Source of the DNA: Eledone cirrhosa
Lineage: Eukaryota
Reading direction: 5' to 3'
Length of the DNA stretch: 64,000 nucleotides
Assembly (NCBI GenBank): GCA_964016885.1
Contig: OZ024743.1
Location: 110,298,001 to 110,362,000, forward strand
In this document: positions 2,731-52,436 of the stretch, in pieces
Layout of the letters: every line of letters starts with the position of its first letter
How positions within the stretch are numbered: the first letter of the stretch is position 1
Notes under the pieces: model-generated
Told to the model about the DNA's origin: nothing
The model's input: only the letters and a program-made list of their open reading frames with translations
The model's database searches: none
Made by a program: the position numbers and the translations under genes

Positions 2731-4469
2731 CTCCCCTAGTAATAATAAACTTGATAGATACTAAAATCCAATGAGTTGTCACGTATGATGTTGACTAGAA
2801 TAGACAATCCTTGTGTGCACGCATAGAAAGTAATTTAATAATGTAACATGATCAAATATAGGTGGCTATTTTGTGAGTAAAATGAACATGAGAGGCTTCC
2901 TCATCCCAAAGGATTCTATATGTAGTTGTATTGTCACAATAGGTTCCTAATAATATTACAATTCCTTACTGTATTAGGTTGGTCGTGAGCAAACTATTGT
3001 CTTATATATTTCGTACAACCATATTCTCGGAATTAAACATCATATTATATCCCTCACAGTCAAAATAATTTGGTTAACTATACTTAATCCATCAATGCCA
3101 AGATGTATACGCGCCTGGCTTTGAGTAAGATGCATAGTTATATCATTATGTAGAGATACATTAAATAGAAAACTGTTTTGTGATGAACTTTGGGAGTATT
3201 TTTATTCACTTCAAAGAATGTTCTTGCACCAGATCAGAGACAGACAACTGCTGGCCTAGAATATATGTTATGTTCTACATGCACTATAGAGACTTCTAAT
3301 ATGAAGGATTCATGTAGCATTGATGATTCATGTAGCTGAGATGTAACGTCATTACTCAATCCAAATACATTTCATTAGAAATAAATTCCTGCTGAATCTT
3401 TCAAGGAATTGGGAATTATACGTGCAGTATTATGTTTACGTATATGTTCAAGGACTGCACAATCCACTAATTATCTTAAAGATAATACTCCAAACATGTA
3501 TATGTTACTCGAAGAATGGGCATTCTATATAAAAGTTTCTTTACAAAGTACATTTTCAATATGATACACAAATCTGTTATACATACCGCTGCAAAATATG
3601 ACATTATAATGATATTTTTATACTTATCACGCATTCTTAATAGTAGAAAAAATAGAAAGAATTTCATGTGTTGGGAGGATAAACGGTCTTTGTTTTGAGC
3701 TGTTTTCTTTCTTAAAGAATATAATGTTTTCTTCTGAGGTACTCCTACAAAAAATTAATCCAATTTTTCTGACAGGTTTCCATAGTTCTTTACATCTAAC
3801 ATAGTTTAGAAAATATTCATATATATCGCTGGTGATCAATGCGGAATAAATGTAAATGCAAAAAAATTGTTTTCTGAGGTCGCTGAAAATCAATATATAA
3901 TATAATATTACGCTGCCTACTTTGAAAATTCCCTTTAAGGAAACCTGGCTACGCTTACTTTAAATGTACAATGTAAACCATTTTCTTGCTACATAATTTG
4001 ACGAAATAACGTTTGATGAGTCTGTTTAAGCGAAATTTATTCAGAAAGCATCTATCGTCCAGTCATTTCTTCCACATGCATGTGTTGGCTGGTGCTTGGC
4101 TTACAACACCCAATTACAGTCTAGTAAAGATAGATACGCAATATTAAAAGCAGCATTTTCTTTTCTTCCGTTCAACCTGCCTCTATCATTGCATACAACT
4201 CTTAGATCAAAGCTCAGAAGATTATAGTAAATTAGTTAATTTTGAAGAAATTGACGTTGAAGAAATGTATGGTGACTATCGCTTTTGACGTCCATCCCTG
4301 TAGGGCTTTGGCATTTTGTATTTTCTAAGAAGTCGGAAGATTCATTCGCATGAGGGAATTAAGACCAATCATTTGTACAGCTATTGGAGAATGAAAAATA
4401 AAACTATTTATATAATATGTATCTATATAATGAAACTGCATTTCTACCTCCAGCAATATAATCTTCATA

Positions 4470-5191
<722 letters not shown>

Positions 5192-7179
5192 GGGGGAGAA
5201 GACCATTTAGTTCAGGTTTCTTAGGTTACTGGCAGAAAAGGGTTTCAAAGCAAATAGAAAAAGTGTAAAACACCAAATATAAAAATATATAGAAAGTGAA
5301 AATTATTTCCTAGAAAGCATGAATGTATAATCTCTTTTAGGGAGAAAAAGGAAGAAACGTATATTTTGATGCCTGAAAAAAATTACTGCTTGAGGAATTC
5401 ATCATTTTTTGTTCCAATTTTAATATTTGTTTGGGTGTTGATGGAGTGTGGGATCAATGTCAAGGTTTATAATCATAGCCACACCGCCCCGTATAAAATA
5501 TATTTCAGAGCTGAGTAAGATAGCGGTAATTGACAACTTTTATGACTCACTAGAAGACATTAAATAGATCAGTTTACTTCGCATTTATTCTTAAGTAAAT
5601 ACTTGCTGCATCGTTCGTTTTTAATTTCCTGTTTTGTTCAGTGTAATAATATATATACTCTGTATGAACGGAGAGTTTCTAAATCAATGCTTTCATTTAT
5701 TAGGTTAATCGCCATAAATTGATGTGAAATTTCAAATGATATTATTAATTTTATATTATCTCACCAAAAATACAATTCTCTTGTGGGTATAAGTCAAAGC
5801 ATATGCAATTTATGTAAACACTTTTCTATGGCTCTAGTAAGATTCTGGCGCGTAAAGCCTACATAAACATATTAGTTTTAATTAGTGTTATAAGAAAGAC
5901 AATATACATATTTAAGTGTAGGTCTCTCCAAGACTATGCGCTGTTAATACTGTGTGTGTGTAGCTTTACACCCGATATTGTTTCATGAATATGATGTTAT
6001 GCCTCATTTTAGTGGTCAATATGTAGAGGAATATGGAGATAACCAAACAAAGATATAGTATTGTAATCATTTAGTAAGTTCATTTGAATAATTTTGTGAG
6101 AATAATTTCCTAATTGGATATAATATGTCTTCACACAATTTATAATTGTGAATCTCTTTCCTCAACATGTGAATGCTACGAAAAAAAAAAGTTGTTGTTC
6201 AATGAAATAAAAATGTCATAATTTATTACTGACTAAAAGTATCAATGTGTGGAAAAATGAAATATCGTGAATGCCCTAACAGACTTAGTTAAAATAAATT
6301 CAATCGCTGTTATCATTTTAAATAACAAGCAAAATACTAGATACTCGGAGAAACGAATTATAAAGAACGTATTTGCTGGTGTTGCTAGGAAGAGGTGTCA
6401 AAACTATCTCAATATTACATTAGGCAACATATAGGCATCAAGGCAGGTATGCATAGTTAATACGCCTATGATCAAATATCTGAACAAAAAGCATCAAACG
6501 TTACGTTACCACCATGGCAACCAAGAAACAAATAAAAGTTCGTTAAATATATTTTGAACGATATACATTCTGATGAATGTCTCTACCTCAGAAACCATAT
6601 AACATTACAAGTTCGATGCTTGGCTAGACCAGTTCTGTTCAAGTATACCTACCGGAGAATAAGTTCACCACTTGACTGGAAAGACAAAAGACAAAAGGCT
6701 GAAAAGATTTTATTTGATATATTTCCGCAGCGTCCCACAAATAATAAAATCACATAGCACAAATTCCCGAAGGATTCACACAACTACTGCATTAGCTCAG
6801 GCACATAATATCATCACACTTTAGAGAATATACCCAGCAACTTGAAACTGGAGACAATTTAAGTTAGATCCTATTCCTATAAAGCAGGCGGATGAACAAC
6901 GCAGGATACCATAGAGCAACATTCAGGTTGAAACGCCCACCTGTAACGAAATATGCAGTTGATGTATTTGGTGTGTGCCAAAATTACCGATAGAATTTTT
7001 ACAAAGTCGATTTTAATAAGTCGATTTTCTGCCAGACTAACGCTCTACAATTCCGCAGGCTCTCCTCAGCCACAAACACCAGACCAGGCTTTACAGTTAT
7101 TTCAATCCCATAACAGAATCACCCCAAATATTGTAATAAAACACTTCCTTGCTGAGCTAAACTTGATCTGCCTTAAACT

Positions 7180-24507: not shown

Positions 24508-24662
24508 ATATTAAGGATACTATTTATGGTTATGTATATACTAAAACGTTTTATAGTTATATATATTTTAAGTGAAGGTCAGTAATTTAATACTACCTTA
24601 TTACCAGTAAGATAAATAGCTTAATGTAATAATATCAGTTGTTCTACAGAGCAGTTATATAG

Positions 24663-25020
24663 AATTCACAAGAATCAAAGCTATGTTCAAAGCAATCATT
24701 CACTTACAATTGTTTCATCCAAACCTATGTTTGGAGTCTTCGGAGCATTTTTCAATGTTTGTACACATAATTGACCTCCTTTCCATCGCAAGAGACATAC
24801 ATATACATATGTATATATTGATGTACAGTAATATAATATAATATATGTCACTCCACTGTACATCAATATATACATATGTATATGTATGTCTCTTGCGTTG
24901 GAAAGGAAGTCAATTATGTGTACAAACATTGAAAAATGCTCCGAATAATCCAAGCCTAGGTTTGGATGAAACAATTGTAAGTGAATAAATGCTTTGAACA
25001 TAGCTTTGATTCTTGTGAAC
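24663..25020. mobile_element. Fold-back pLTR element (~165-bp arms) with a variant hammerhead in each arm
   Basis: Inverted repeat centred near 24842; arm consensus gct-CCGAAGA-atccaaac/ctag/gtttggat-GAAA-CAATTG-TA-agt (right-arm copy 24937-24983). Confidence 0.75.
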
Positions 25021-25184
25021 TATATATATATATATATATATTAAAGAGTTAAGCAAGATTCAATGAGTACATCAAAGAACGAGTTTTCCAGTAGAGTGGA
25101 AGCACTCTACAAAAAATAATTTTCTAGAGTCATTAATATAAAAATACAAATATTAATAACATGGATCTTCTTTTGATCAATTAC

Positions 25185-25237
25185 ATTTTATTGTACATAT
25201 TTCAGAGATACAACAGTATGTCCTCATCAGACAAAAT
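25185..25237 (-). ncRNA. Hammerhead ribozyme copy in the inverted pLTR (U16.1>C, probably inactive)
   Basis: Reverse complement: attttgt-CTGATGA-GGACATAC/TGTT/GTATCTCT-GAAA-TATGTA-CA-ataaaat. Confidence 0.7.
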
Positions 25238-26205
25238 ATAATGATACATGATACATGACATACCGTGAGATGTTAAATGGTTAAGATTTAATCAAGGTAG
25301 TGATTATACCCTAATAATGAGAAAATGTGAAAACGTAATAAATTCAATAGAGAATGTGTGAGTAAGAAAAACGTTGGTTAATGTGACAGCTATAGAGATT
25401 TTAAAATGTAGGATACTACAAGTTATGGTTATCTAGGAAAACATCTCATGAATTATAACAGTCCACGAGGGCCGCTGAAAGATAATTTAACTTTAGCATG
25501 TTTGAATCTATTATTATTCTATATTCGTTATCATTTACCTAAAGTATCATTAATATATCTCTATATACCTAATCGTTATTTAAATATTTCTAACAATAAG
25601 TACTTCATAAGCTTTACATACCGAAATTGTTGACATTTTTATAGGTAATCTTCGTTAAAGATTACATTTAGGAAAATATTCAACAGTGTAAATGTTCCTT
25701 TCGCTGGCCAGGTAAATCCTTTAAATGTTATCCTCATAAAATGCAGAAGCTTAGAAATGTTAACACACTTATAGAATTTATAAAATTAATAAATATAAAT
25801 AACCAGCAACGTTAAAAAAATACCTAAAATTTTTAATCTTCAACCATAAAATAACATAAATTATATATTTTGAAACTTAACCGTTTAGCTTTTGGTGAAA
25901 AAAATCTCTTTCTGCATATATTACTCCCCTTTATCTTTCCCTCTCTTTAAATCATCTATCGCGGCCCTCATGGACTGTTATAATTCATGAGATATTTTCC
26001 TAGATAACCATAACTTGTAGTATCCTACATTTTAAAATCTCTATAGCTGTCACATTAACCAAGGTTTTGCTTACTCTATTGAATTTATTACGTTTTCGCA
26101 TTTTCTCATAATTAGGGTATAAATGTTGAGTTTTCTCTTGGGTTAATCACTACCTTGATTAAATCTTAACCATTTAACATCTCAGGGTATGTCATGTATC
26201 ATTAT

Positions 26206-26258
26206 ATTTTGTCTGATGAGGACGTACTGTTGTACCTCTGAAATATGTATAATAAAAT
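26206..26258 (+). ncRNA. Minimal type-I hammerhead ribozyme (5' pLTR)
   Basis: attttgt-CTGATGA-GGACGTAC/TGTT/GTACCTCT-GAAA-TATGTA-TA-ataaaat: intact core, stems I and II, self-complementary hexamer in place of stem III. Confidence 0.88.
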
Positions 26259-26463
26259 TGTATTGATCAAAAGAACATATATTTTATTAATATTTGTATT
26301 TTAATATTAATAACTCTGGGAAATTATTTACAGTAGAGTGCTTCCAATCTACTGTAAAACTCATTGTTTCATGTACTCATTGAATCCTGTTTAACTCTTT
26401 AATATATACTGCTCCCAACTGGTTGAGCGCTTTTCTCTACAATAGATTGCATATTCAATATAT

Positions 26464-28530
26464 ATGGATTTCTTCAACTCCCGACTTCCCTCAAAGAACA
26501 AACTTCTGGAGGTTTTTGAAACAGAATTGCTCGGTATAATTAAACAAATTAAATTTAGGAGAAACCCATATATAGGTCACCAATATCTTAGAACTCTAAA
26601 AGAAAAAAAAATCACGTAAATAAAACATGTTAACAAAGCATTGGTTAAATCGGACAGAACAAATAATTTATATGCGATAAACAAAGATGAATATAACAAC
26701 TTGATTTGAAAGGAACTTAGGAAATATTACAAAAAAGCCCCGGCTGATGATCTTACTGAAATTAACGAAGAAGCCTATAAATTACTTACCAATTTAGGAA
26801 TAGAAGGAAGAACCGAGCCATTCTTACCTAGACAGCTGAGGATTAACTTGAAGGATCACAAAAGAAACTTTGAGGAAGAGATGCCAGTTAGATTGATTGC
26901 TCCATCCAAATCGGATATTGGAGTAATCAGTAAAAACATCGTCGATAGAATCTTACCCGCTCTTAAATTGAGATCTAATTTGAGCTTGTGGAAAGATACA
27001 AATGAAGTCATAGAATGGTACAGGAATATAGATGATAAGAAAAACCATACATTCATCCAGATGGACATTACAAGCTACTATTCTTCCATAACACCTAAGC
27101 TTCTAAATGAGGCTCTTTCATATGCTTATAAGCATACTGATATAACCACGGATGAAATTGATATCATACTAACAGCCAGAGGAACTCTTATTAACTTCAA
27201 CAATGAATATTGGACCCGCTCAGATAGAGATAGAAACTTTGATATCACTTTGGGGGCATCCGATTCCGCGCAAATCACAGATCTTCTGGGAATGTTCATA
27301 TTAAATATGATAAATAGAAAACTGCCGAAGATTACCGGTGGTTAATATAGGGATGATATCTTATTTACGGTGGTCAAACACAACAATATAGACTACAGAG
27401 ACTAAAGAAAAGTATAATAGAATACTTTAAAATGTATGACCTTAAATTAGAAGTAGAAAATGATACCAAAATAGTTAATTTCCTAGACGTTACATTTAAC
27501 TTAAACACTGGCTTTTATTACCCTTTTCATAAGCCCAATGAAAACTTAAACTGTGTTAGTAACAATTCCAATAACCCTAAATCTGTAAAAAATAAGCCAT
27601 AGTAAATAGTGTGCAAAAACGAATTAATAAAATATCAGCCAATAAAGCTATATTTGATGAAAACGCTGAATGCTACAACAACGCGTTAAAAAGAGCAGGA
27701 TATGTGAATAATATGTAGATAATAATAATCCAGGTATTAATCCTGATAAAAATAATAACATATATAAGAGAAACTCTAATAATTATAATTCAAACACCCA
27801 TACGCCAAATAAATTGAGGAAAAAAACTAGAACTAAATCAGTCATATGGTTCGCCCACGCCCCCTGCTTCGGTCGCACTTAGAACACCAATTGCAAAATT
27901 ATTCTGTAATGCTTTGGACACCTCTTTCCCTACCCAACATAAATACCATTCCATTTTTAATAGACACACCATTAAATTCTCATATTCTGCAACTATGAAC
28001 ATGGCCCAAAACATTGCCAAATTAAACACCAACATTCTAAAACAAAACCAGCATAATGATTTTAATAATAGAGTTAACATAAATGAAACTAAACCAAAAT
28101 GTAATTGTAGAAATAAAACTGATTGCCCTTTGCAAAATAATTGTCTAGATAGTAATTTGGTTTATAAATGCACCGTAAAAACTGATCACAATACATACAG
28201 CTACATAGGATCGACTTCTTCAACATTTAAAGCCAGATTTGCGAACCATAAATGCTCATTCACGAATTCCATTCACAGCTCATATGGTCATTAAAAGAGA
28301 GGAACTTAAAATACTCCATTCTTTGGACAAAGCTTCGGAATTGTGGAGTTTACCGCAACTCTAGTATCTCAAATAACTCCGCGCTCTGTACAATGGAGAC
28401 CATGTTCATTATTAATAGCTATGAGACCCTAATTAACAAAAACAGTGAATTATTCTCTAGTTGCCTTCACAAAGCTACGTCCACATTATTAGCCTCCCAC
28501 AAAACCAGAAAAAAGAGAAATAAACACTAA
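26464..28530 (+). pseudogene. PLE reverse transcriptase + GIY-YIG endonuclease, disrupted
   Basis: PVRLIAPSKSDIG, FIQMDITSYYSSI, FDITLGASDSAQ, GG*YRDD, VNFLDVTFNL, CNCRNKTDCPL...LVYK...YIGST..FKARFANH; several stops and frameshifts. Confidence 0.92.
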
Positions 28531-29080
28531 GCCATTAAAAAGTTGGTTTTCAGACTTAAATAACCAACATGGAAAAACATTAATGGCCTTTAATATTGCA
28601 TTATCTTATAACTATCTATAGAAGAAATAACGCTCGAATGAATGACACTTGTTCAATAACACGCTGACACGTTGATATACATAGCATAATATTATTAACT
28701 TTGATCCATACCATTATTTCTCTATTTTTATTTTCCTATCTAAGTTTTAAACTTTAGTTCAAATATCCAACCTGTTTATTTTTACGGAACTTATTTTTAA
28801 TTGTGAATCATTCATGTGTTTACATTTTCTATTTATAATATGTATGTACTTATGCCTTGTAAGTTTTTAAATATACCTACCTTAGTTTTATATTCATGAT
28901 TCAAATATAGAACACATATCCAACCTGTAAATTATTACGGACCTACTATGAACTCCGAGTTATCCATGCATTTATTATTTTTCTTATATATATGTATGTA
29001 TTTAACTGTAACACGTTGAAATCTATTATATACGATTATAATCGTTATCATTTACCTAAAGTATACTGTATCACTAATAC

Positions 29081-29185
<105 letters not shown>

Positions 29186-30005
29186 CTGTCTATACCTAAT
29201 TTTTAGATTATTATTTATTTTATTTTGAACTGTGAATAATTCTTGCATTTACACCCTTTTATATATATGTATCTATTTACCTTTAGCATGTTTTAATCTA
29301 TTATTATTCTATATTCGTTATCATTTACCTAAAGTATCAATAATATATCTCTATATTCCTAATCGTTATTTAAATATTTCTAACAATATATACTTCATAA
29401 GCTTTACATACCGAAAATGTTGACATTTTTATAGGTAATCTTCGTTAAAGATTACATTTAGGAAAATATTCAACAGTGTAAATGTTCCTTTCGCTGGCCA
29501 GGTAAATCCTTTAAATGTTATCCTCATAAAATTAAGAAGTTTTGAAATGTTAACACACTTATAGAATTTATGAAATCAATACATATAAATAACCAGCAAC
29601 TTTTAAAAAAAAACTAAAATGTTGAATCTTCACCCTTAAAATAACATGAATTAAATATTTTGAAACTTAACCGTTTAGCTTTTTGGGAGAAAAATCTCTT
29701 TCTGCATATATTACTCGCCTTTATCTTTCCCCCTCTTTAAATCATCTTTCAGCGGCCCTCGTGACTGTTATAATTCATGAGATGTTTTCCTAGATAACCA
29801 TAACTTGTAATATCCTACATTTTAAAATCTCGATTGCTGTCACATTAACCAACGTTTTTCTTACTCACACATTCTCTATTGAATTTATTACGTTTTCGCA
29901 TTTTCTCATTATTAGGGTATAAATGTTGAGTTTTATCTTGGGTTAATCACTACCTTAATTAAATCTTAACCATATAACATCTCAGGGTATGTCATCTATC
30001 ATTAT

Positions 30006-30058
30006 ATTTTGTCTGATGAGGACGTACTGTTGTACCTCTGAAATATGTATAATACAAT
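30006..30058 (+). ncRNA. Minimal type-I hammerhead ribozyme (3' pLTR)
   Basis: Core and stem II identical to 26206-26258; one stem-I mismatch. Confidence 0.85.
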
Positions 30059-30080
30059 TTAATTGATCAAAAGAACATGT

Positions 30081-32470
30081 GATCACAAATACAACTGGAG
30101 TCTTTTTAAGAATATTTATTTGGTTCCTTTACCAGTTTCGCAGTTATTATGCTTTTCAAAAGTAGAATTGAGATGGAGGGTTTCTGGTTTTTCTCGCATC
30201 TGGTTGGTGTTCGAATGTTAATTCTGTTTCATGTGAAAAGAATTGGCTCGAAATGCTAGGTATTTAGGAAAGTAATATTTTGATTTCGATGACAGTACTT
30301 ACAAGCAAGTATCGGGGACTGCGATGGGTACAAGAGTCCCTCCAACTTATGCTAACTTAGAAATGGCGTACTTAGATGCCTAGATACCTGAACACTGCAA
30401 ATCAAAATACGGATTGAACTTCCACAATTATTCATCAGAGAATTGGAAACACTACTTGGATGATTGCCTTATTTTCGGCCTCACACGCTCGACCAACTAA
30501 ATGGTTTCAAAAATGTAATTAACGTCATCAATTACCATATCCAATTCACAATGGAATACAGCCAAGATCAACTCCCATTTCTGGGCATCTTATTAATCAT
30601 AAAAAGGCACAAATATTGAAATTGACATACACTACAAACCAACAGATTCCGAACAATACCTGCTATTCACCCCCAACCAAACAAAGCACACGAACACGAA
30701 CATCCCTTTTAACCTTACAAGAAGAATTTGCACAAATGTCTCCAATTATGAAACGCGATATAAAAGACTTCAAGAATTAAAGGAAATTCTGCTCGAAAGA
30801 CATTACCCACCATTATTAATAAATAATGGAATAGAAGGGGCTAAAGCAACAGGCATTGATTAATTACGAAAACAAACAAACTCAAGGTACGCCCAATATT
30901 CTATAATATCTCAACACACAAACCAAGAAATGAGGATACATACAACATTATTCACAAGAACATCCTAGAATGAAAAAAGCCCTTGAAACACACAAAATAA
31001 TCAAAAGCAAAATACAACCGAAATCACTAAAAACATTACTCACCAACGCCAATTTACCTACTAGAAACCCACACAAATTGTAAAAAAATGTGGTCGCTCT
31101 AATTGTGGAACCTGCACTCTCCTCATTGAAGGCACAATGTATACATTTCAATCAGGACGACATGTTGTTGTAAAAAATCATTTCACTTGTTCATCAAAAA
31201 ATCGATTTTATGCCATTAAATGTAAAGGATGCAATGAAATTATATAGGACAAACTAAACTCACACTCAGAAACAGAATGACAATTAATCGCCAACAATTA
31301 CGAGACCCTACCAGAAGACAGATACCACTCAGTGCACATATAGGCATATGCGCAAGCGATAAGACACCCAAATTCCAAGTCTACCCAATTTACCTTTGCG
31401 CTGACAATACAACAGAACAAATTTCGAATAAATAAGGAAAATATGTTTATTCAAAAATATAGACCAGCATTAAATTTAGTTTAATATACATTATGTTAAC
31501 ACCATAACATGCTAACCATCCAAACATACACATACACACACACACACATAACACCTATATTCGAAAATAAAAACCAGAGCTAAATAAAGCTTAACATACG
31601 TCAATACTCTTAACATGCTAACCATACCCCCTCCGACACATATAACTCCACCCCATTTCTACTAACAATCATTTTCCTACACACACATAAATATATATTT
31701 GCGCTGACAATACAACAGAACAAATACGAATAAATATAGAAAATATGTTTATTGTAAACTATAGACCAGCATTAAATATAGTTTAATATATATTATGTTA
31801 AAACCATAACATGCTAATATCCAAACCGACACATACACACACACACACACACATACACACACATATGTAATACCCATACACACACATCTCTCCCTCCCCC
31901 ATTTCTACAAATAGAATCATTTTCTTACACACACACATACACACACACACAAACACACACACACACCTGCACACAAAGAAAAATACATATCTCTACTTTC
32001 TTTATTTCAATAGAAAGTCACTGAACCAGAACAATTCTCCCCATCCCTTTTTTCTCGACCATTTTCTTTTGTTTGGCACAACATTTTCTAAATGGCTACA
32101 AAGAAATTCCAAAATACGGGCGCGAATTTAACGTACTTATTCACGTGACAGTCATAACCACTCAAATTTTCGAGCCACTCTTTTAAGTTAAAAAAAACTC
32201 AAAAACGAACTGGCGCGAAATTTATTATACTTATTCACGTGACATTCATCAACCAACCAAATTACTTTTCTAAAAAAAAACTAGCATTTCGAGCCACTTT
32301 TTTCCACATGAAAGAGAAGTAACATTCGAACACCAACCAACTCTGAGACCGGTAAATGAACAAAATAAATATTCTTAAAAAACTCCAGTTGCATTTTCGA
32401 TTTCATCTTTTTTCCTTATACTTTCACTCGTTTTTTTTTTCATTATGGAAAAGAAACACCTCATTTTCTA
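30081..32470 (+). mobile_element. 5'-truncated Penelope-like element (Neptune-like) with inverted 5' pLTR piece
   Basis: 30081-30255 is inverted relative to 32288-32405; RT/GIY-YIG relic inside; 3' end duplicated (31396-31550 / 31698-31860). Confidence 0.88.
30275..31483 (+). pseudogene. PLE RT (C-terminal half) + Cys-rich linker + GIY-YIG endonuclease, disrupted
   Basis: YKQVSGTAMGTRVPPTYANL, WKHYLDDC, IQFTMEYSQDQLPFL, HYKPTDS, KCGRSNCGTC...FTCSS...YAIKCKGCNE/IGQT. Confidence 0.9.
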
Positions 32471-39763: not shown

Positions 39764-42620
39764 ATGGCTATGCTAAGAGTAGGCTGTCTAAATGCGCGTC
39801 CCTGGACTCAACTTGGAAGCAAGCAATGCTTCTAAATGACCTCAGGTCTCAAAGTATAGATGTGATGGTTATTTGCGAGGCCCGGATCAGCAACGTGCGA
39901 CAGCTGGCCCCAGCTGGCCCCCACCTTTGATGACTTTGAGATGCACGCATCTCTCTCTCAGCCCGGAGGTGTGGTGGGATTGTCGTTCTGCTGCAAAAAC
40001 ATCTGGGTTTCGCAACACAGACGGTACATTTGGACCCGGAGGGTCGACTAGTGGTTCTGGACCATGGCAGTGGTGAAGGCGGAGCGTTTAGGTTGGTAGC
40101 CGCCTACGGCCCTTTCGGGTCAATGCGGCCGGAGTTCTTCCATCGTCTGGAGACTTTTATAGGGACGTCCCGCTCCTTGCTATTAGTGGAGGACTGGAAT
40201 GGTATCCTAGATGCACGCTGGGACTACGTAGGGGGCCTGTCCTGATAGAGAGGGGTGTAATAGCCTCAAAGGGTTAATCGATCGATTTGACCTGGCCGAT
40301 AGATATCGACTAGATTTTCCGACTGCGCCAACCTGGACTTGGGCAAATCGTAGCGGATCATATATGTCGTACCTAGATAGGGTCTTAGTTAGAAATAAGG
40401 ATAAGGACTTTTTAAGTTGTCCAAAAATGCGCATGGTTGGCTATTCAGACCACAAGTTAGTGAGCTGCATGGTCAACCTTGACAGAACACATAGACAGGG
40501 ACCCTGTTACTGGAAGCTCAACTTGTCCTTACCGGCAAGTAAGGTTTACAGGGACCGGATTAGCACTTTAGTTAAGGAGCGGTTGACGGGCGCCATCGTC
40601 AACAGAAGGTGGTGGGGATCTCTCAAAAGAGAGATTAGAGTAGTCTCTATAGAATTTAGTAAGGAGTTAGCCTCAAATAGAAATAGGAAGGAAAGGGAGT
40701 TGGTAGATGGTGTAGAAGAGGCAATTAGAAGCGGCGACGTGGTCAGATTTCTAGCGTCGAGAACGGCCCTGGGCCAGATCTTCGACGCAAAACACGCGAG
40801 GCTGCATCGAGGAGGAAACGAGGGGACCAAAGCTGTTAGCTGGGCCCGCGTGACAGAAGCCAAAAGAGGGAGTAGAGCCACTATCCGGTCTTTGCGAGAC
40901 CAGGATGGACGCGTGATCCTTGAACCTAAGCAGATGTGCGAGGCTTTTCAAAAGCACTTTGCCAGATTGTTCAGAAGGCTCGGGGAGCCGGTTGGGGAAG
41001 TGGACTTCGGTCCATACCTCGACAGCCTGCCGCGTCTCTCGGACAGGGAGGCGAAGTCCTGCGAGGATCCGATTTCAGCCGCTGAGATAGAGGATGTGCT
41101 GAGCCAATGCGGCAAACGTAAATCGCCGGGTCTCGATGCTCTTCCATACGAACTATATCTAGCTATGCCGGACTTGTTCCCCGATCTCCTCGAGGCGGTC
41201 TACTGAAACTGGCAACCGAACGGGAGAATTCCCTGTGCTTTGACCAAGGGCGTAGTCAGGCTAGTGAGGAAGGACGAGAACAAGGGGGACGATATAAATA
41301 ATTTCAGACCCATAACTCTGCTAAATACAGAGTTACAGATTTTTGCAAAGGTGCTAGCAAAGAGGTTGGCGCTTGTCGTTGGAGATGGTGGGAGATGCGC
41401 AGACATGTGCTATCCGTCCAGGTCCATCCACGACAAACTCCACCTCTTGCGATACATCATAGATAGGGTTGGAAACGAACTCGGCTTTGGTGGGGCCCTG
41501 ATCAACTTGGATCAATCTAAGGCGTTCGATAGGGTCGACCATAGTTACCTGGATGCGGTGCTAGCAGCGGCAGGCTTCGGACCCGTTTTCAGGGACTGGA
41601 TCAATGCCATGCACCGCAGTCGCATCTGCTCTAGGGTCAAGGTGAACGGCTACCTCTCGGAGCCGTTCGAAATCGCGCGGTCCATCTTACAAGGGTGCCC
41701 TCTCTCCTCCCTTCTGTATGTAATGACTCAAGAGCAACTGCTGCGGAAGTTGGAGTTGTTGCAGGGCATCCCTTTGGAACCGGGATTGCGGAAAGCGGTG
41801 TCGGCCTACGCCGACGAGGTAACAGTTATGGTGTCGACGGCCTCGGAAATCGGGGCGATCGGCACCTTACTGGAGGAGTACGAAAGGTTTACAGGGGCTA
41901 AGCTGAACCGGGACAAGTCGATTGGTCTGCAACTCGGCACGTGGAGGGGCAGATCTATGCCCTCCGATGGCGTCGTCGGGCGCTAGACGGAGGGCCCGGT
42001 GAAGTTGCTCCGGGTGGAGAAGAACTGGGGTGGGGTAACGAACAGGGTGTTTGCTAACCCAGAAGTGGGCCGAGTGCAAACTGTGCCTGAAAGGTCGGGC
42101 GGAGCTGGCGAACACTTATATAGCGTCCGTCATCTACTACCGCCTGACCGCTGTGCCTTGCCCAAGGGAAACCCTCGCCAAAATGGAGCACGCACTCTTC
42201 CAATTCCATTGGAAGAAGCGGGCTCCTATGGTGAGGAGATCCACCTGCTATCAACACCCTTCGAAAGGAAGGCTAGTGATGCCGTGGCTAATGATACGTA
42301 AACACGCATTAAGGCTACGGCACCTCCAGGTATTCCTCACCGGTCAACCGGTGTGGGCCCCGTTTGTGAGTCGAGCCTTTCCCAGACTCGTCTCTCTCAC
42401 CGAGCTGCAATCCTGGGTCAAGCAAAGACCGAGAAAGCTGGGCGCCTGGCACACCGAGTCTGCCCAGGCGCTCATGGCTCTCTGACAGGCGGACCCGGCT
42501 GTCAGTGGAGAATCCACCTCGTCATTCTATAGAAGGCTGGTGGTTAGCAGGTGCGACGACGCCCTCGGAGAAGCCCTAGGCATGGAGGAAGACGAACTGG
42601 GCAACCTGTTCGGTAGGACA
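39764..42620 (+). pseudogene. LINE ORF2 (APE endonuclease + reverse transcriptase), disrupted
   Basis: MAMLRVGCLNAR, EDWNGILD, SYLDRV, SDHK, YWKLN, KSPGLDAL, NFRPITLLN, LDQSKAFDRVDH, QGCPLS, AYADEV. Confidence 0.93.
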
Positions 42621-43046: not shown

Positions 43047-43393
43047 GCAAAAGTTTTATTTAAGATTGTTGGGTCACAACGAGTAAATATTTTATAACTG
43101 ATATAAAAGCACTCAACAGTTTCTGGAGTAGGTTTACGATATTAAACAAATGGAAACTATATTTATAAAACCATATTTATTTCGTTATATATATTTCCGG
43201 GATATCACTACCAAATCAACTTTTTAAATGGAAGTTGCATTATTATAAGGTATCTCAAAAATTATTTATAAAACAGCTTATGTATTGTATTTTGTCTGAG
43301 GAAGGCATACCATATTTTTAATATGATATCCCAGAAATATATATAACGAAATAAATATGGTTTTATAAATATAGTTTCCATTTGTTTAATATC

Positions 43394-45905: not shown

Positions 45906-45984
<79 letters not shown>

Positions 45985-45988
<4 letters not shown>

Positions 45989-46408
45989 GGAGGTGAGTTT
46001 TATTGTAGTACAATAAAGCAATGCAGATATCGGATAAGAAGCACTCTACAGTTTGTAGGACTGGAGTATGCATAATATAAGATCAAAAGATGGTTAAAGG
46101 AGTTCCATATATTTTATTATGCGCATTTTAAAAACAAACATCATCATGCAATAATATTTGTGTTTTCATCAGATAAAACAGGAGAACATGATATGAAGGC
46201 TAAAAAACACTTGTGGATAGTGCAGTTTTAAATCAACATATATGTTGATTTAAAACTGCACTATCCACAAGTGTTTTTTAGCCTTCATATCATGTTCTCC
46301 TGTTTTATCTGATGAAAACACAAATATTATTGCATGATGATGTTTGTTTTTGAAATGCGCATAATAAAATATATGGAACTCCTTTAACCATCTTTTGATC
46401 TTATATTA
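45985..46408. mobile_element. Young fold-back pLTR element; near-perfect loop-less palindrome 46073-46408
   Basis: Centre at 46240/46241, ~168-bp arms, one mismatch seen; related copy at 49778-50034. Confidence 0.85.
46303..46369 (+). ncRNA. Minimal type-I hammerhead ribozyme with long stem II
   Basis: ttttat-CTGATGA-AAACACAAAT...ATGTTTGTTTTT-GAAA-TGCGCA-TA-ataaaa. Confidence 0.8.
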
Positions 46409-46413
46409 TATAT

Positions 46414-46785
46414 ATTGAAATATGGTATGCCTTCATCGGACACAATACAATATATAAACGGTTTTATGAATGATTTTGACGTGCCCTGTTGGATGCGACC
46501 ATTGTTTTTGGAAGCTTCCAAAAATGGTGGTCGCATCTAATAGGGTGCGTCAAGATTATTTATAGAACTGTTTATATATTGTATTTTGTCTGATGAAGGC
46601 ATACCATATTTTAATTTGGTGTCCCTGAAATATGTATAATGAAATAAATATGGTTTTATAAATATAAATATAGTTTCCATTTATTTAATATCATAAATAT
46701 ACTCCAAATACTTGTTGAGTGCTTTTATATCAGTTATAAATATTTACTCGTTGTTAACCCAACAATTTAAATATAACTTTCCATG
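46414..46785 (+). mobile_element. Fold-back PLE pLTR derivative (hairpin 46414-46615) with hammerhead at 46582-46647
   Basis: Hairpin centre ggaag|cttcc; tattttgt-CTGATGA-aggcatacc...ggtgtccct-GAAA-TATGTA-TA-atgaaata. Confidence 0.85.
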
Positions 46786-46797
46786 TATATATATATA

Positions 46798-47395
46798 TAA
46801 TTGGAAATTTAGTAAAATCGAATCTATGGCGGTTTGCATGTAAATTCGCCCTACTTATATGAAATGATAAGTTAGCAAAGCACTCAATAAGTTAGGTCCT
46901 TAGAGTAGTAACATACGTTTAAATAGCCTGACAAATCGAACATTGTGGTAGGCAAAATTCCAGCAACAGAAATAACCCCAGTTTTTGGCGGGTCATTCAA
47001 ATTATTAGACAAAGGAAATATTTTTATTTCCGCTAATCATCATGATAAGCTCTCGAACAGATGTTATAAAACCAACACAAATAATTAACCAATCAACAGA
47101 ATTGTCTAATTAAATTAATTAGTTAATTATTAAATCTAGGAGAATAATATAATTCGTGATTCAGTAAAATCGAATCTCTGGCGGTTTGCAAGCAAATTCG
47201 GCGTACTTATATGAAATGATGAGTTAGCAAAGCACTCGATAAGTTAGGTCTTTAGAGTAATAACATACGTTTAAATAGCTTGACAAATCGAACATTGTGG
47301 AAGGCAAAATCTAACACACTATAATATACCAAAGTAACGATAGAACTAACTAAATCTAGGAGAATAATATTATTGGAAATTTAGTAAAATCGAAT
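46798..47395. repeat. Direct repeats of ~160 bp (46798-46958, 47150-47310, partial 47350-47395) between (TA)n tracts
   Basis: agtaaaatcgaatct.tggcggtttgca...gacaaatcgaacattgtgg.aggcaaaat is repeated. Confidence 0.8.
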
Positions 47396-48460: not shown

Positions 48461-49524
48461 TAATTATACCAACTCCCACACCCATACACATGTGGGCATG
48501 GAATTGTGTGCTTTTGTATGAGCGTATATTTACCAAATTTTACTATTACATTCGACTATCATCATTATTATGCTAACACCCACTCGTATGTCATGAATTT
48601 CGATATATTGTTAGCAGTGTCTTAAACCACTATATATGAACTATTGTAGGATGTCTAGATAGAGATAAACATATGTTAATACTTATAATGTGCTGCAACT
48701 CAACAAATACATGTTTCGAGCATCGTAATTAGTTCTTTCCTAGTTTTAGATCTGATACTTTTAAGTGTATTATTAAACGTCATCATATAGCCTTCAAACA
48801 TGTTATCTCTATAAATGGTTAACACGATTAAAGTCTATATGATAACCTATTGTAATACACATACGTTAAAATCACGTGCCCTTATGTAATTTTATATAGC
48901 TCAGTGTGGTAATGGGAGACTTAGAAAATCGAATTAAGGCCGATAAATGGAATCATGTGTGGCTTTGTGTAGTCAGGGGTGTAGCCATACTGACCACACT
49001 TGGTCAATTGCGGGTTGGTGTGGATATTTACCACATAGCTGGGTAAACTCATTTCTTCCGAAGATGTAACCAGCCGAAATTCCCGAGCTCCTGGCCGACA
49101 CTCTTCTTTCACTTATATATATATGCTTGGTGGTGACCTAACTGTCCAGCTCGTTTGTCTAACACTATATCACGAAAAAGGTTATACATCTCGTATATAT
49201 TTTTCGTTAAGAGGACATGTTTTGGTTTATTTAATACATAAAACTTTACAGCTTTACATATAAATATATATGATATAAGGTATATATGTTCCCTTTATTA
49301 CTAGTATTATAATAATACTCCGGATAAATTTATACCGTTGAGTGATTGGTGTCTGTTATATATAAGAATTAGTTGATTACATATCGACTAACTCCTTTTC
49401 CATTGATTATATATATATATATATATATATTGTTCAGAAGAGGTTGCTTTGACCAAAAACGGGTGTAAGCAGGAGAAAGCTCTCAACAATCGTATTTATT
49501 AGTTACGATGGCGATTTTCATAAA

Positions 49525-49746
49525 AATAACAAAATAAGACGCTGAGGTTACATAGATGGTTTAATCATTATAATTATTTCCACAGTTCTCCATGCAATCG
49601 AGATGTCCACCAAAAATATGCCAGCGGCATATCAAACATATCGGATATCATGAAGATACCGTTCTCATACAACAACAAATGCATGGAGAACCGTGGAAAT
49701 CATTACCATGATTAAACGATCTATGTAACCTCAGCATCTTATTTTG

Positions 49747-49750
<4 letters not shown>
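49525..49750 (+). mobile_element. Fold-back pLTR remnant with a degenerate hammerhead (~49646-49713)
   Basis: Inverted repeat 49525-49596 / 49680-49750; TGAAGA-taccgttctc...gagaaccgtg-GAAA; the left arm gives GAAA-TAATTA-TA on the minus strand. Confidence 0.6.
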
Positions 49751-49777
<27 letters not shown>

Positions 49778-49783
<6 letters not shown>

Positions 49784-50033
49784 ATCAAAAGATGGTTAAA
49801 GGAGTTCCATGTATTTTATTATGCGCATTTCAAAAACAAACATCATCATGCAATAATATTTGTTTTCATCAGATAAAACAGGAGAACATGATACGAAGGC
49901 TAAAAAACACTTGTGGATAGTGCAGTTTTAAATCAACATATATATTATGTATACTCCAGTCCTACAAACTGTAGAGTGCTTCTTATCCGATATCTGCATT
50001 GCTTTATTGTACTACAATAAAACTCACCTCCTA

Positions 50034-50034
<1 letters not shown>
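49778..50034. mobile_element. Rearranged copy of the 45985-46408 element; intact hammerhead on the minus strand (~49813-49877)
   Basis: 49778-49942 matches 46077-46242; 49941-50034 is the reverse complement of 45985-46079. Confidence 0.85.
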
Positions 50035-50082
<48 letters not shown>

Positions 50083-52305: not shown

Positions 52306-52436
52306 ATAGGAACAAGTATGACCCTGACGGCAGAGCTCAAGCCGTTTTGACGACTAATTCTGGACTCAATTCTGGAGTCCAGAACGAGCCGTCGAAATGG
52401 CTTGAGCTGTGCCGTCGGGGTCATACTTGTTCCTAT
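52306..52436. repeat. ~62-bp-arm hairpin within a short insert in (TA)n
   Basis: taggaacaagtatgaccc...ctggactc / gagtccag...gggtcatacttgttccta. Confidence 0.8.

Follow-up and report, generated by a model that had tools for sequence, protein, structure and literature searches.

RNA edits normally vanish with the RNA. Whether they can be written into a genome is the question raised by a fold-back structure at 46414-46615 of the window, the 64,000-nt stretch of Eledone cirrhosa DNA that was analysed. The initial annotation proposed that a fold-back transcript of a Penelope element (PLE) had been A-to-I hyper-edited and then retrotransposed. The best reading of the locus, held here with high confidence, is that hyper-edited double-stranded RNA was reverse-transcribed, with a template switch, into the genome. 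The proposal is supported by the polarity of the changes relative to sister copies, by four further copies with sense-only A>G changes, by the ADAR context of the changed sites and by the presence of an ADAR2-like gene.

The hairpin and its mismatches

The hairpin has the following features.

46414..46514, + strand: left arm, antisense-pLTR, with nine A>G changes; C46443 is common to the sister copy L002
46417, 46438, 46460, 46468, 46472, 46483, 46488, 46491 and 46504, + strand: A>G sites of the left arm
46515..46615, + strand: right arm, sense-pLTR, with five A>G changes (46526, 46527, 46547, 46554 and 46565)
46621, + strand: fifteenth A>G change, outside the present hairpin and inside the longer L002 duplex

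Re-pairing of the two arms exactly reproduced the annotated 101-nt arms and mismatch coordinates: 86 Watson-Crick pairs, 14 G.T oppositions (nine with the G on the left and five on the right), one C.T opposition (46443) and no A.C. The 14:0 bias, originally put at about 1e-4, is recomputed as p=1.2e-4. In a set of 161 inverted repeats, drawn from the window and from 107 fetched loci, oppositions of the G.T and A.C kinds are balanced (390 vs 365), and the hairpin 46414-46615 is the sole clear outlier, the next having p=0.022; on the scale of multiple testing, 161 x 1.2e-4 amounts to about 0.02. Other hairpins of the window have mixed mismatches, as had been claimed, with one G.T, three A.C and six other mismatches at 24656-25028 and three, two and two, respectively, at 52306-52436. 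The hairpin 49520-49756 has seven A.C vs one G.T and 14 other mismatches (p=0.07), and this is probably ordinary decay.

The 5' neighbours of the 14 sites are nine U, three A, two C and no G, as first counted, and U rises to ten once site 46621 is added. The ADAR context that was read into these numbers stands in part at the hairpin itself: the 5' U excess is significant (10/34, p=0.02), but the 5' G depletion is not (0/9, p=0.35). Contigs of four runs (at most two samples of one study) leave 46426-46551 uncovered except for one stray piece, which leaves the stretch at 46515.

Sister copies, polarity and the candidate source

A search of the same genome gave 1422 candidates, 40 of which were scored, at 30 loci; after four duplicates and the window locus were dropped, 25 sisters were aligned. 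They carry A at the 14 sites and at 46621, with a G in 1 of 375 cells. On the + strand, then, both arms hold derived A>G changes, as was originally claimed, and the feared alternative of a G:C family consensus decaying by C>T is refuted. The other feared outcome, fixation of the G.U pattern in many copies, is refuted by two genome-wide patterns in which one G was fixed and A or G was allowed elsewhere. The first found the window copy and two single-site variants, and the second (right-arm, family A) the window copy alone. Since both recover only the window copy as multiply changed, the G.T pattern has not been amplified in the family. Two single-G matches, L061 and L063, were rejected as edited copies because neither contains a cluster. 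The sibling at 43220-43320, which had been offered to polarise the changes, has A at 46547, 46554, 46565 and 46621 but fails at 46526-46527 in the present alignment. With a likeness of only about 82%, the 43.2-kb sibling gives way to the genomic sisters as the basis of the polarity.

One sister, L002 (G000:C14:30398620 onward), differs from 46414-46656 at 15 positions over 243 nt, and all of the differences are A>G. Relative to it, 15 of 88 A are changed and none of 90 T is changed to C (p=2.6e-5), and the left arm of the window copy is 5'-truncated by about 37 nt. The unpaired C46443 in its context is found at three places in 3.0 Gb: the window, L002 and L127, which lies 33 kb from L002 and has a long loop and other differences. 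The L002 duplex extends to the window-equivalent position 46652, so it takes in 46621. All 15 sites lie within this duplex and none in the tail of the insertion, but the L002-derived part barely outreaches the duplex. L002 on C14, or an identical sister, is thus the likely source hairpin as judged by these matches.

L126 and L127 (G000:C14:30398636 and 30431366) are hairpin copies 33 kb apart in opposite orientation. One unmirrored left-arm variant is common to both, whereas a mirrored pair and the length of the loop distinguish them, a pattern that suggests whole-hairpin propagation or local conversion.

Structure of the insertion

The insertion and its surroundings are composed of the following parts.

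45908-45985: (TA)n, preceding the family B pLTR
45986..46413/46414, - strand: adjacent fold-back pLTR of family B, head to head with the edited copy
46414..46656, + strand: segment identical to L002 save for 15 A>G changes
46582..46646, + strand: minimal hammerhead-like motif, found with a purpose-made descriptor
46657..46662, + strand: 6-nt duplication, present in none of the 25 family sisters nor in the tail-subfamily copy L033
46663..46785, + strand: 3' tail of the pLTR, matching without a difference a second and very young subfamily (L033 type)
46786..46799, strand not assigned: what remains, at the 3' end, of a (TA)n tract, the sequence usually targeted by such elements

The 6-nt duplication falls within 46635-46692, the stretch over which one subfamily gives way to the other, and is likely to be the scar of a template switch. 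Comparison with copies of the two subfamilies makes the insertion a chimera, built from two templates. The tail is free of A>G changes (0/58 A changed in 46626-46785), for which the chance at the rate of the body is 0.83^58, or about 2e-5 by hand calculation, and the whole chimeric insertion has no ordinary substitution in about 390 nt. The truncated left arm, the sister on another chromosome and the (TA)n at the 3' end are traits of a retrotransposed copy; a target-site duplication is unreadable in (TA)n.

The adjacent family B hairpin (46067-46414) is unedited and has 171 of 174 positions paired. Twin priming with this neighbouring element was considered and dropped: family B contigs run into (TA)n at 46415, which makes a pair of independent insertions into the same (TA)n tract a sufficient explanation. 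Family B is young, occurs in the window at 45986-46414 and 49768-50079 and has a putative hammerhead-like motif at 46301 (+ arm). It also adjoins related pLTRs in L008 and L102, so pLTR families pile up in shared (TA)n tracts. A repeated unit of roughly 360 nt starts right after the 3' (TA)n (window 46800-47300).

The hammerhead-like motif at 46582-46646 consists, in order, of helix I, CUGAUGA (46590-46596), helix II, GAAA and a short, near-palindromic helix III. The definition used for the descriptor follows the hammerhead description given in PMC4209133. A search of Rfam at gathering and E-value thresholds gave no hammerhead, only microRNA-like matches to hairpins and microsatellites. The annotated hammerhead-sense strand is thus retained as a putative assignment by the descriptor but not by Rfam, and the motif so defined marks + as the pLTR sense.

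The element family

By way of its pLTR relatives, the edited hairpin is assigned as the fold-back pLTR of a Hydra-like Penelope element. Inspected by eye, ORF fragments of copies with the pLTR of the tail subfamily contain an RT (YRDD) followed by a GIY-YIG-type domain (IIY...YVG). They bear the Hydra-clade marks SDKTN (DKT), CNCRDRSKC (CxCx5C), CDLC (CxxC) and CRH (CxH), with no CCHH. The account of C-terminal EN+ PLEs of the Hydra clade in PMC8557442 gives them DKT, a CxCx5C linker, no CCHH, and CxxC and CxH near the C-terminus, together with a pLTR hammerhead, (TA)n targets and inverted 5'-truncated copies. Pfam gave no match for related PLE ORF fragments of the window, nor did a PDB search with PLE ORF fragments. 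Target-primed reverse transcription at AT-rich DNA has been demonstrated in vitro for a PLE of another clade (PMC11167929).

Another Hydra-like PLE occupies window 25000-30100, with an RT fragment at 26710-27345, a GIY-YIG fragment at 27818-28294, inverted pLTRs and a putative hammerhead-like motif at 26205; it has 2882 candidates genome-wide and is not hypermutated. At 40232-41986 the window also contains a GC-rich, broken ORF of a non-LTR retrotransposon with an RVT_1 match (E=1.5e-19).

Longer hypermutated copies

One hypermutated copy, L043 (extended as L064), was present among the 29 other top matches of the search with the tail subfamily. Four longer copies are now recognised.

L064, G000:C3:362176000-362185999, locus 3830-5722: 71 sense A>G and 5 other changes; 1.2-kb loop
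L100, C2:120.38 Mb, 3540-5560: 176 A>G and 19 other changes
L101, C18:30.12 Mb, 4320-6450: 244 A>G and 11 other changes; almost complete, its 5' 1.7 kb unedited
L102, C1177, 4255-5225: 107 A>G and no other changes; bounded tract, unedited on both sides

The counts are relative to sister majorities, with tract borders set after the clusters had been seen, and the sense strand is set by the RT-EN ORF. Three of the four were found through the single G that was fixed, at a UA site, in a 35-nt ORF pattern. This pattern has four matches among the 379 copies that match it without the fixed G, each with 4-8 G in 35 nt, and its antisense mirror, used as a control, has no match. The four copies have different nearest relatives, and their common edits are modestly above independence (e.g. 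61 vs 50.8); since the overlap exceeds that of independent draws only modestly and the relatives differ, they are separate events.

When the five copies are pooled, 613 A>G changes stand against 36 others. The edited fraction by 5' neighbour is 268/642 (0.42) for U, 210/621 (0.34) for A, 45/249 (0.18) for C and 36/238 (0.15) for G, and by 3' neighbour it is highest for G, 77/160 (0.48). The pattern fits the rule of human ADAR1 and ADAR2, 5' U>A>C>G with a 3' G (PMC3113232), which is a rule for the human enzymes. In the octopus data of PMC5625713 the 3' G preference of hyper-editing is weaker than in these copies. Source hairpins of the four long copies were sought among 16 loci, and none had arms matching the tract borders; L100-L102 have kilobase-long edited tracts with no in-place hairpin over them.

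Hypermutation is rare, with a floor of about 1% for the long family and a ceiling of a few percent. Among the first 100 listed of the 379 pattern copies, one is multiply changed. In the long family, a pattern placed at another site returned L064 alone, and none of the 56 sampled C1 loci contains a hypermutated tract. In a third PLE family, none of 30 loci is hypermutated, and one pattern matched nothing, for which there is no denominator. Inverted repeats of at least 300 nt are present in 25 of the 56 sampled loci, so long dsRNA would be plentiful if they were read through. A scan of 108 sequences yielded no cluster of sense G>A (APOBEC-type) changes.

Small clusters in L004, L011, L024, L037, L044, L059, L079, L115 and L116 were rejected as microsatellite misalignment; the inspected set leaves out L028, L032, L067, L069, L071 and L076, which also have small clusters. 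In L192 (C1:378.89 Mb), positions 1682-2049 contain four consecutive antisense changes of the same type over 370 nt, too few to be called.

Mirrored and unmirrored arms

The inverted arm of L064 repeats the edits as their complement (T>C), and apart from this the arms are separated by a single substitution, at the edge of the (TA)n, and by two indels in microsatellites. Because the edits are mirrored in a near-identical inverted arm, they must have existed, and been copied, as DNA, and this is the best internal evidence against an artefact. Private variants of family A are often mirrored as well, 25 mirrored pairs vs 22 unmirrored variants in 25 copies, a finding in keeping with fold-back copying or with conversion between the arms. 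The 15 changes of the window copy are unmirrored and lie on one strand, the outcome to be expected when a single hairpin RNA is copied from one arm into the other. In most insertions of these families the second arm seems to be made by copying of DNA, and the wobble hairpin would then be the rarer case, that of read-through.

Origin of the changes

The rival explanations are all improbable, to different degrees. An artefact of assembly, base-calling or polishing, through misreading of a perfect hairpin or entry of edited RNA reads into the consensus, is very unlikely. Polishing with RNA would also leave edits of one strand in both arms at the window locus, and systematic clustered sequencing errors, mainly G>A, are described in PMC2873906. 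The adjacent 174-bp hairpin was, however, read almost perfectly, as were many others (45 of the 161 inverted repeats have at most 1% mismatches). Edited reads from a single transcript would not produce the opposite-strand, mirrored edits of L064, the kilobase-long tracts of L100-L102 have no hairpin in place to be misread, and an ADAR neighbour context is not expected of a base-caller. Near the other end of the scale, neutral C>T decay, or selection for a G.U-tolerant RNA structure in a master element, has a probability close to nil. It is true that all 14 G.T changes preserve pairing of the + strand RNA, for which the predicted fold of the edited copy is -149.7 kcal/mol vs -101.3 kcal/mol on the - strand, but the unedited sister is predicted to fold at least as well (-153.3 kcal/mol) and the pattern occurs in one copy only. 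As the sisters have A:T at the sites, both variants are excluded unless an unsampled G:C subfamily exists.

Mutation in place, either by deamination of DNA adenine in an R-loop or cruciform or by repair from the element's own edited transcript, would give the same strand and, in the case of an edited transcript of the resident hairpin, the same context; an A>G bias on the non-transcribed strand is also known. This explanation is no more probable than an artefact. The lack of any other substitution in the insertion leaves little time in place, site 46621 is outside the window duplex and inside that of L002, and the mirrored edits of L064 predate the completion of that insertion. In an RNA:DNA hybrid, deamination acting on the cDNA strand would appear as sense T>C, of which the antisense control found none. 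Slightly harder still to credit is an error-prone RT or a dNTP imbalance, with G placed opposite T (or C opposite A) at insertion and no editing enzyme involved. Such errors would also be strand-specific and clustered within one insertion, but they do not account for an unchanged tail (0/58) in the same insertion, for the sharp borders of L102 with its exclusive A>G changes and unedited flanks, or for a neighbour pattern that obeys ADAR rules.

Editing by ADAR followed by reverse transcription remains the preferred reading, and the genome has candidate enzymes. The adenosine-deaminase domain PF02137 is found at three multi-hit loci and one single hit (C6:13.64 Mb, C1:146.45 Mb, C25:17.35 Mb and C1:320.73 Mb), and the C6 exon encodes an ADAR2-like deaminase (E=3e-102 to human ADAR2). 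The observed polarity, strand, sister identity, chimeric junction and four additional copies can be joined by a series of postulated steps. A read-through RNA of L002, or of an identical sister, would fold into a duplex of about 137 bp, which an ADAR would hyper-edit from A to I. The nuclease of the element would nick (TA)n, and the RT would start on pLTR RNA of the young second subfamily, leaving an unedited tail. Near 46657, at the foot of the stem, it would switch to the edited hairpin RNA and leave the 6-nt duplication. Reading each inosine as G, the RT would then copy first the right arm and next, through the centre, 101 nt of the left arm, so that both arms would have independent A>G changes and the DNA would have G.T oppositions. 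Second-strand synthesis would fix the changes. Their presence in the assembly makes the germ line or early embryo the probable site. The window copy is without evident function and is a fossil of editing.

A broader interpretation is more doubtful than not and is offered tentatively: that ADAR hyper-editing may repeatedly mutate Penelope elements in the germ line of this lineage, with about 1-3% of new insertions affected, that editing may open long fold-back RNAs for read-through of both arms by the RT, that RNA edits may gain a heritable route and that the edits may barcode two modes of insertion. If this is true, the way into heritable DNA is permanently available to RNA edits, including those in carried host sequence, and the barcode separates arms mirrored from cDNA, as in L064, from wobble arms derived from hairpin RNA, as in the window.

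Significance and comparison with known systems

The copies indicate that hyper-edited RNA can template insertion in cells that contribute to the genome, and they may be regarded as an invertebrate, ADAR-driven counterpart of the APOBEC-scarred retroelements of vertebrates. Germ-line activity of ADAR on transposon RNA, and its rate, become testable from genome sequence alone, as do the RNA strand and template that the Penelope RT copies and the way in which the inverted pLTR arm is built. The edits at the window locus point to a template switch followed by copying of the full hairpin RNA, both arms included, and those of L064 to the copying of the second arm from cDNA. Hypermutated copies also distort the dating of repeats.

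ADAR-type hypermutation that reaches DNA is already known from exogenous retroviruses. The ADAR-linked A-to-G hyper-edited sequences cited in PMC8586724 include RAV-1, avian leukosis virus and HTLV-2/STLV-3. As here, clustered sense A>G changes pass from edited RNA to DNA by reverse transcription; those viruses are exogenous, mostly from culture, and the events are described there as rare, whereas the five independent copies reported here belong to an endogenous, non-viral retroelement in a chromosome assembly. DNA editing of LTR retrotransposons by APOBEC was described by Knisbacher and Levanon (PMC4866542) and by Zaranek et al. (PMC2873906). Those elements too are strand-biased hypermutated copies in genomes, recognised through their sisters and a complementary-strand control, but their changes are G>A from C-to-U deamination of cDNA in vertebrate LTR elements, whereas those of the PLE are A>G in an ADAR context. 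In the main text of the APOBEC screen, invertebrates are described as devoid of such editing and other mismatch types as very rare (PMC4866542).

Hyper-editing of repeat-derived dsRNA by ADAR has been found across Metazoa, and octopus has the highest count in the table of PMC5625713. Dense A>G clusters from inverted-repeat RNA and depletion of 5' G are common to that work and the present copies; there the changes are differences between RNA and DNA, whereas here they are in the genome sequence itself. The Hydra-clade PLEs in the account of PMC8557442 have the same ORF motifs, hammerhead, (TA)n and inverted truncated copies, with editing scars unmentioned in that account; the edited hairpin of the window is a non-coding pLTR fragment. 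Human L1 RNA, a non-LTR retrotransposon RNA likewise met by an ADAR, is reported in PMC5224506 as unedited and its restriction by ADAR1 as independent of editing, whereas here edited templates appear to have been inserted. Among the matches listed in full-text searches of a mainly open-access literature, none reports ADAR-scarred Penelope copies in a genome. To what was known from retroviruses, the window locus adds a likely source hairpin, a template-switch junction and, in its wobble arms, the record of a whole hairpin RNA that was copied into DNA.
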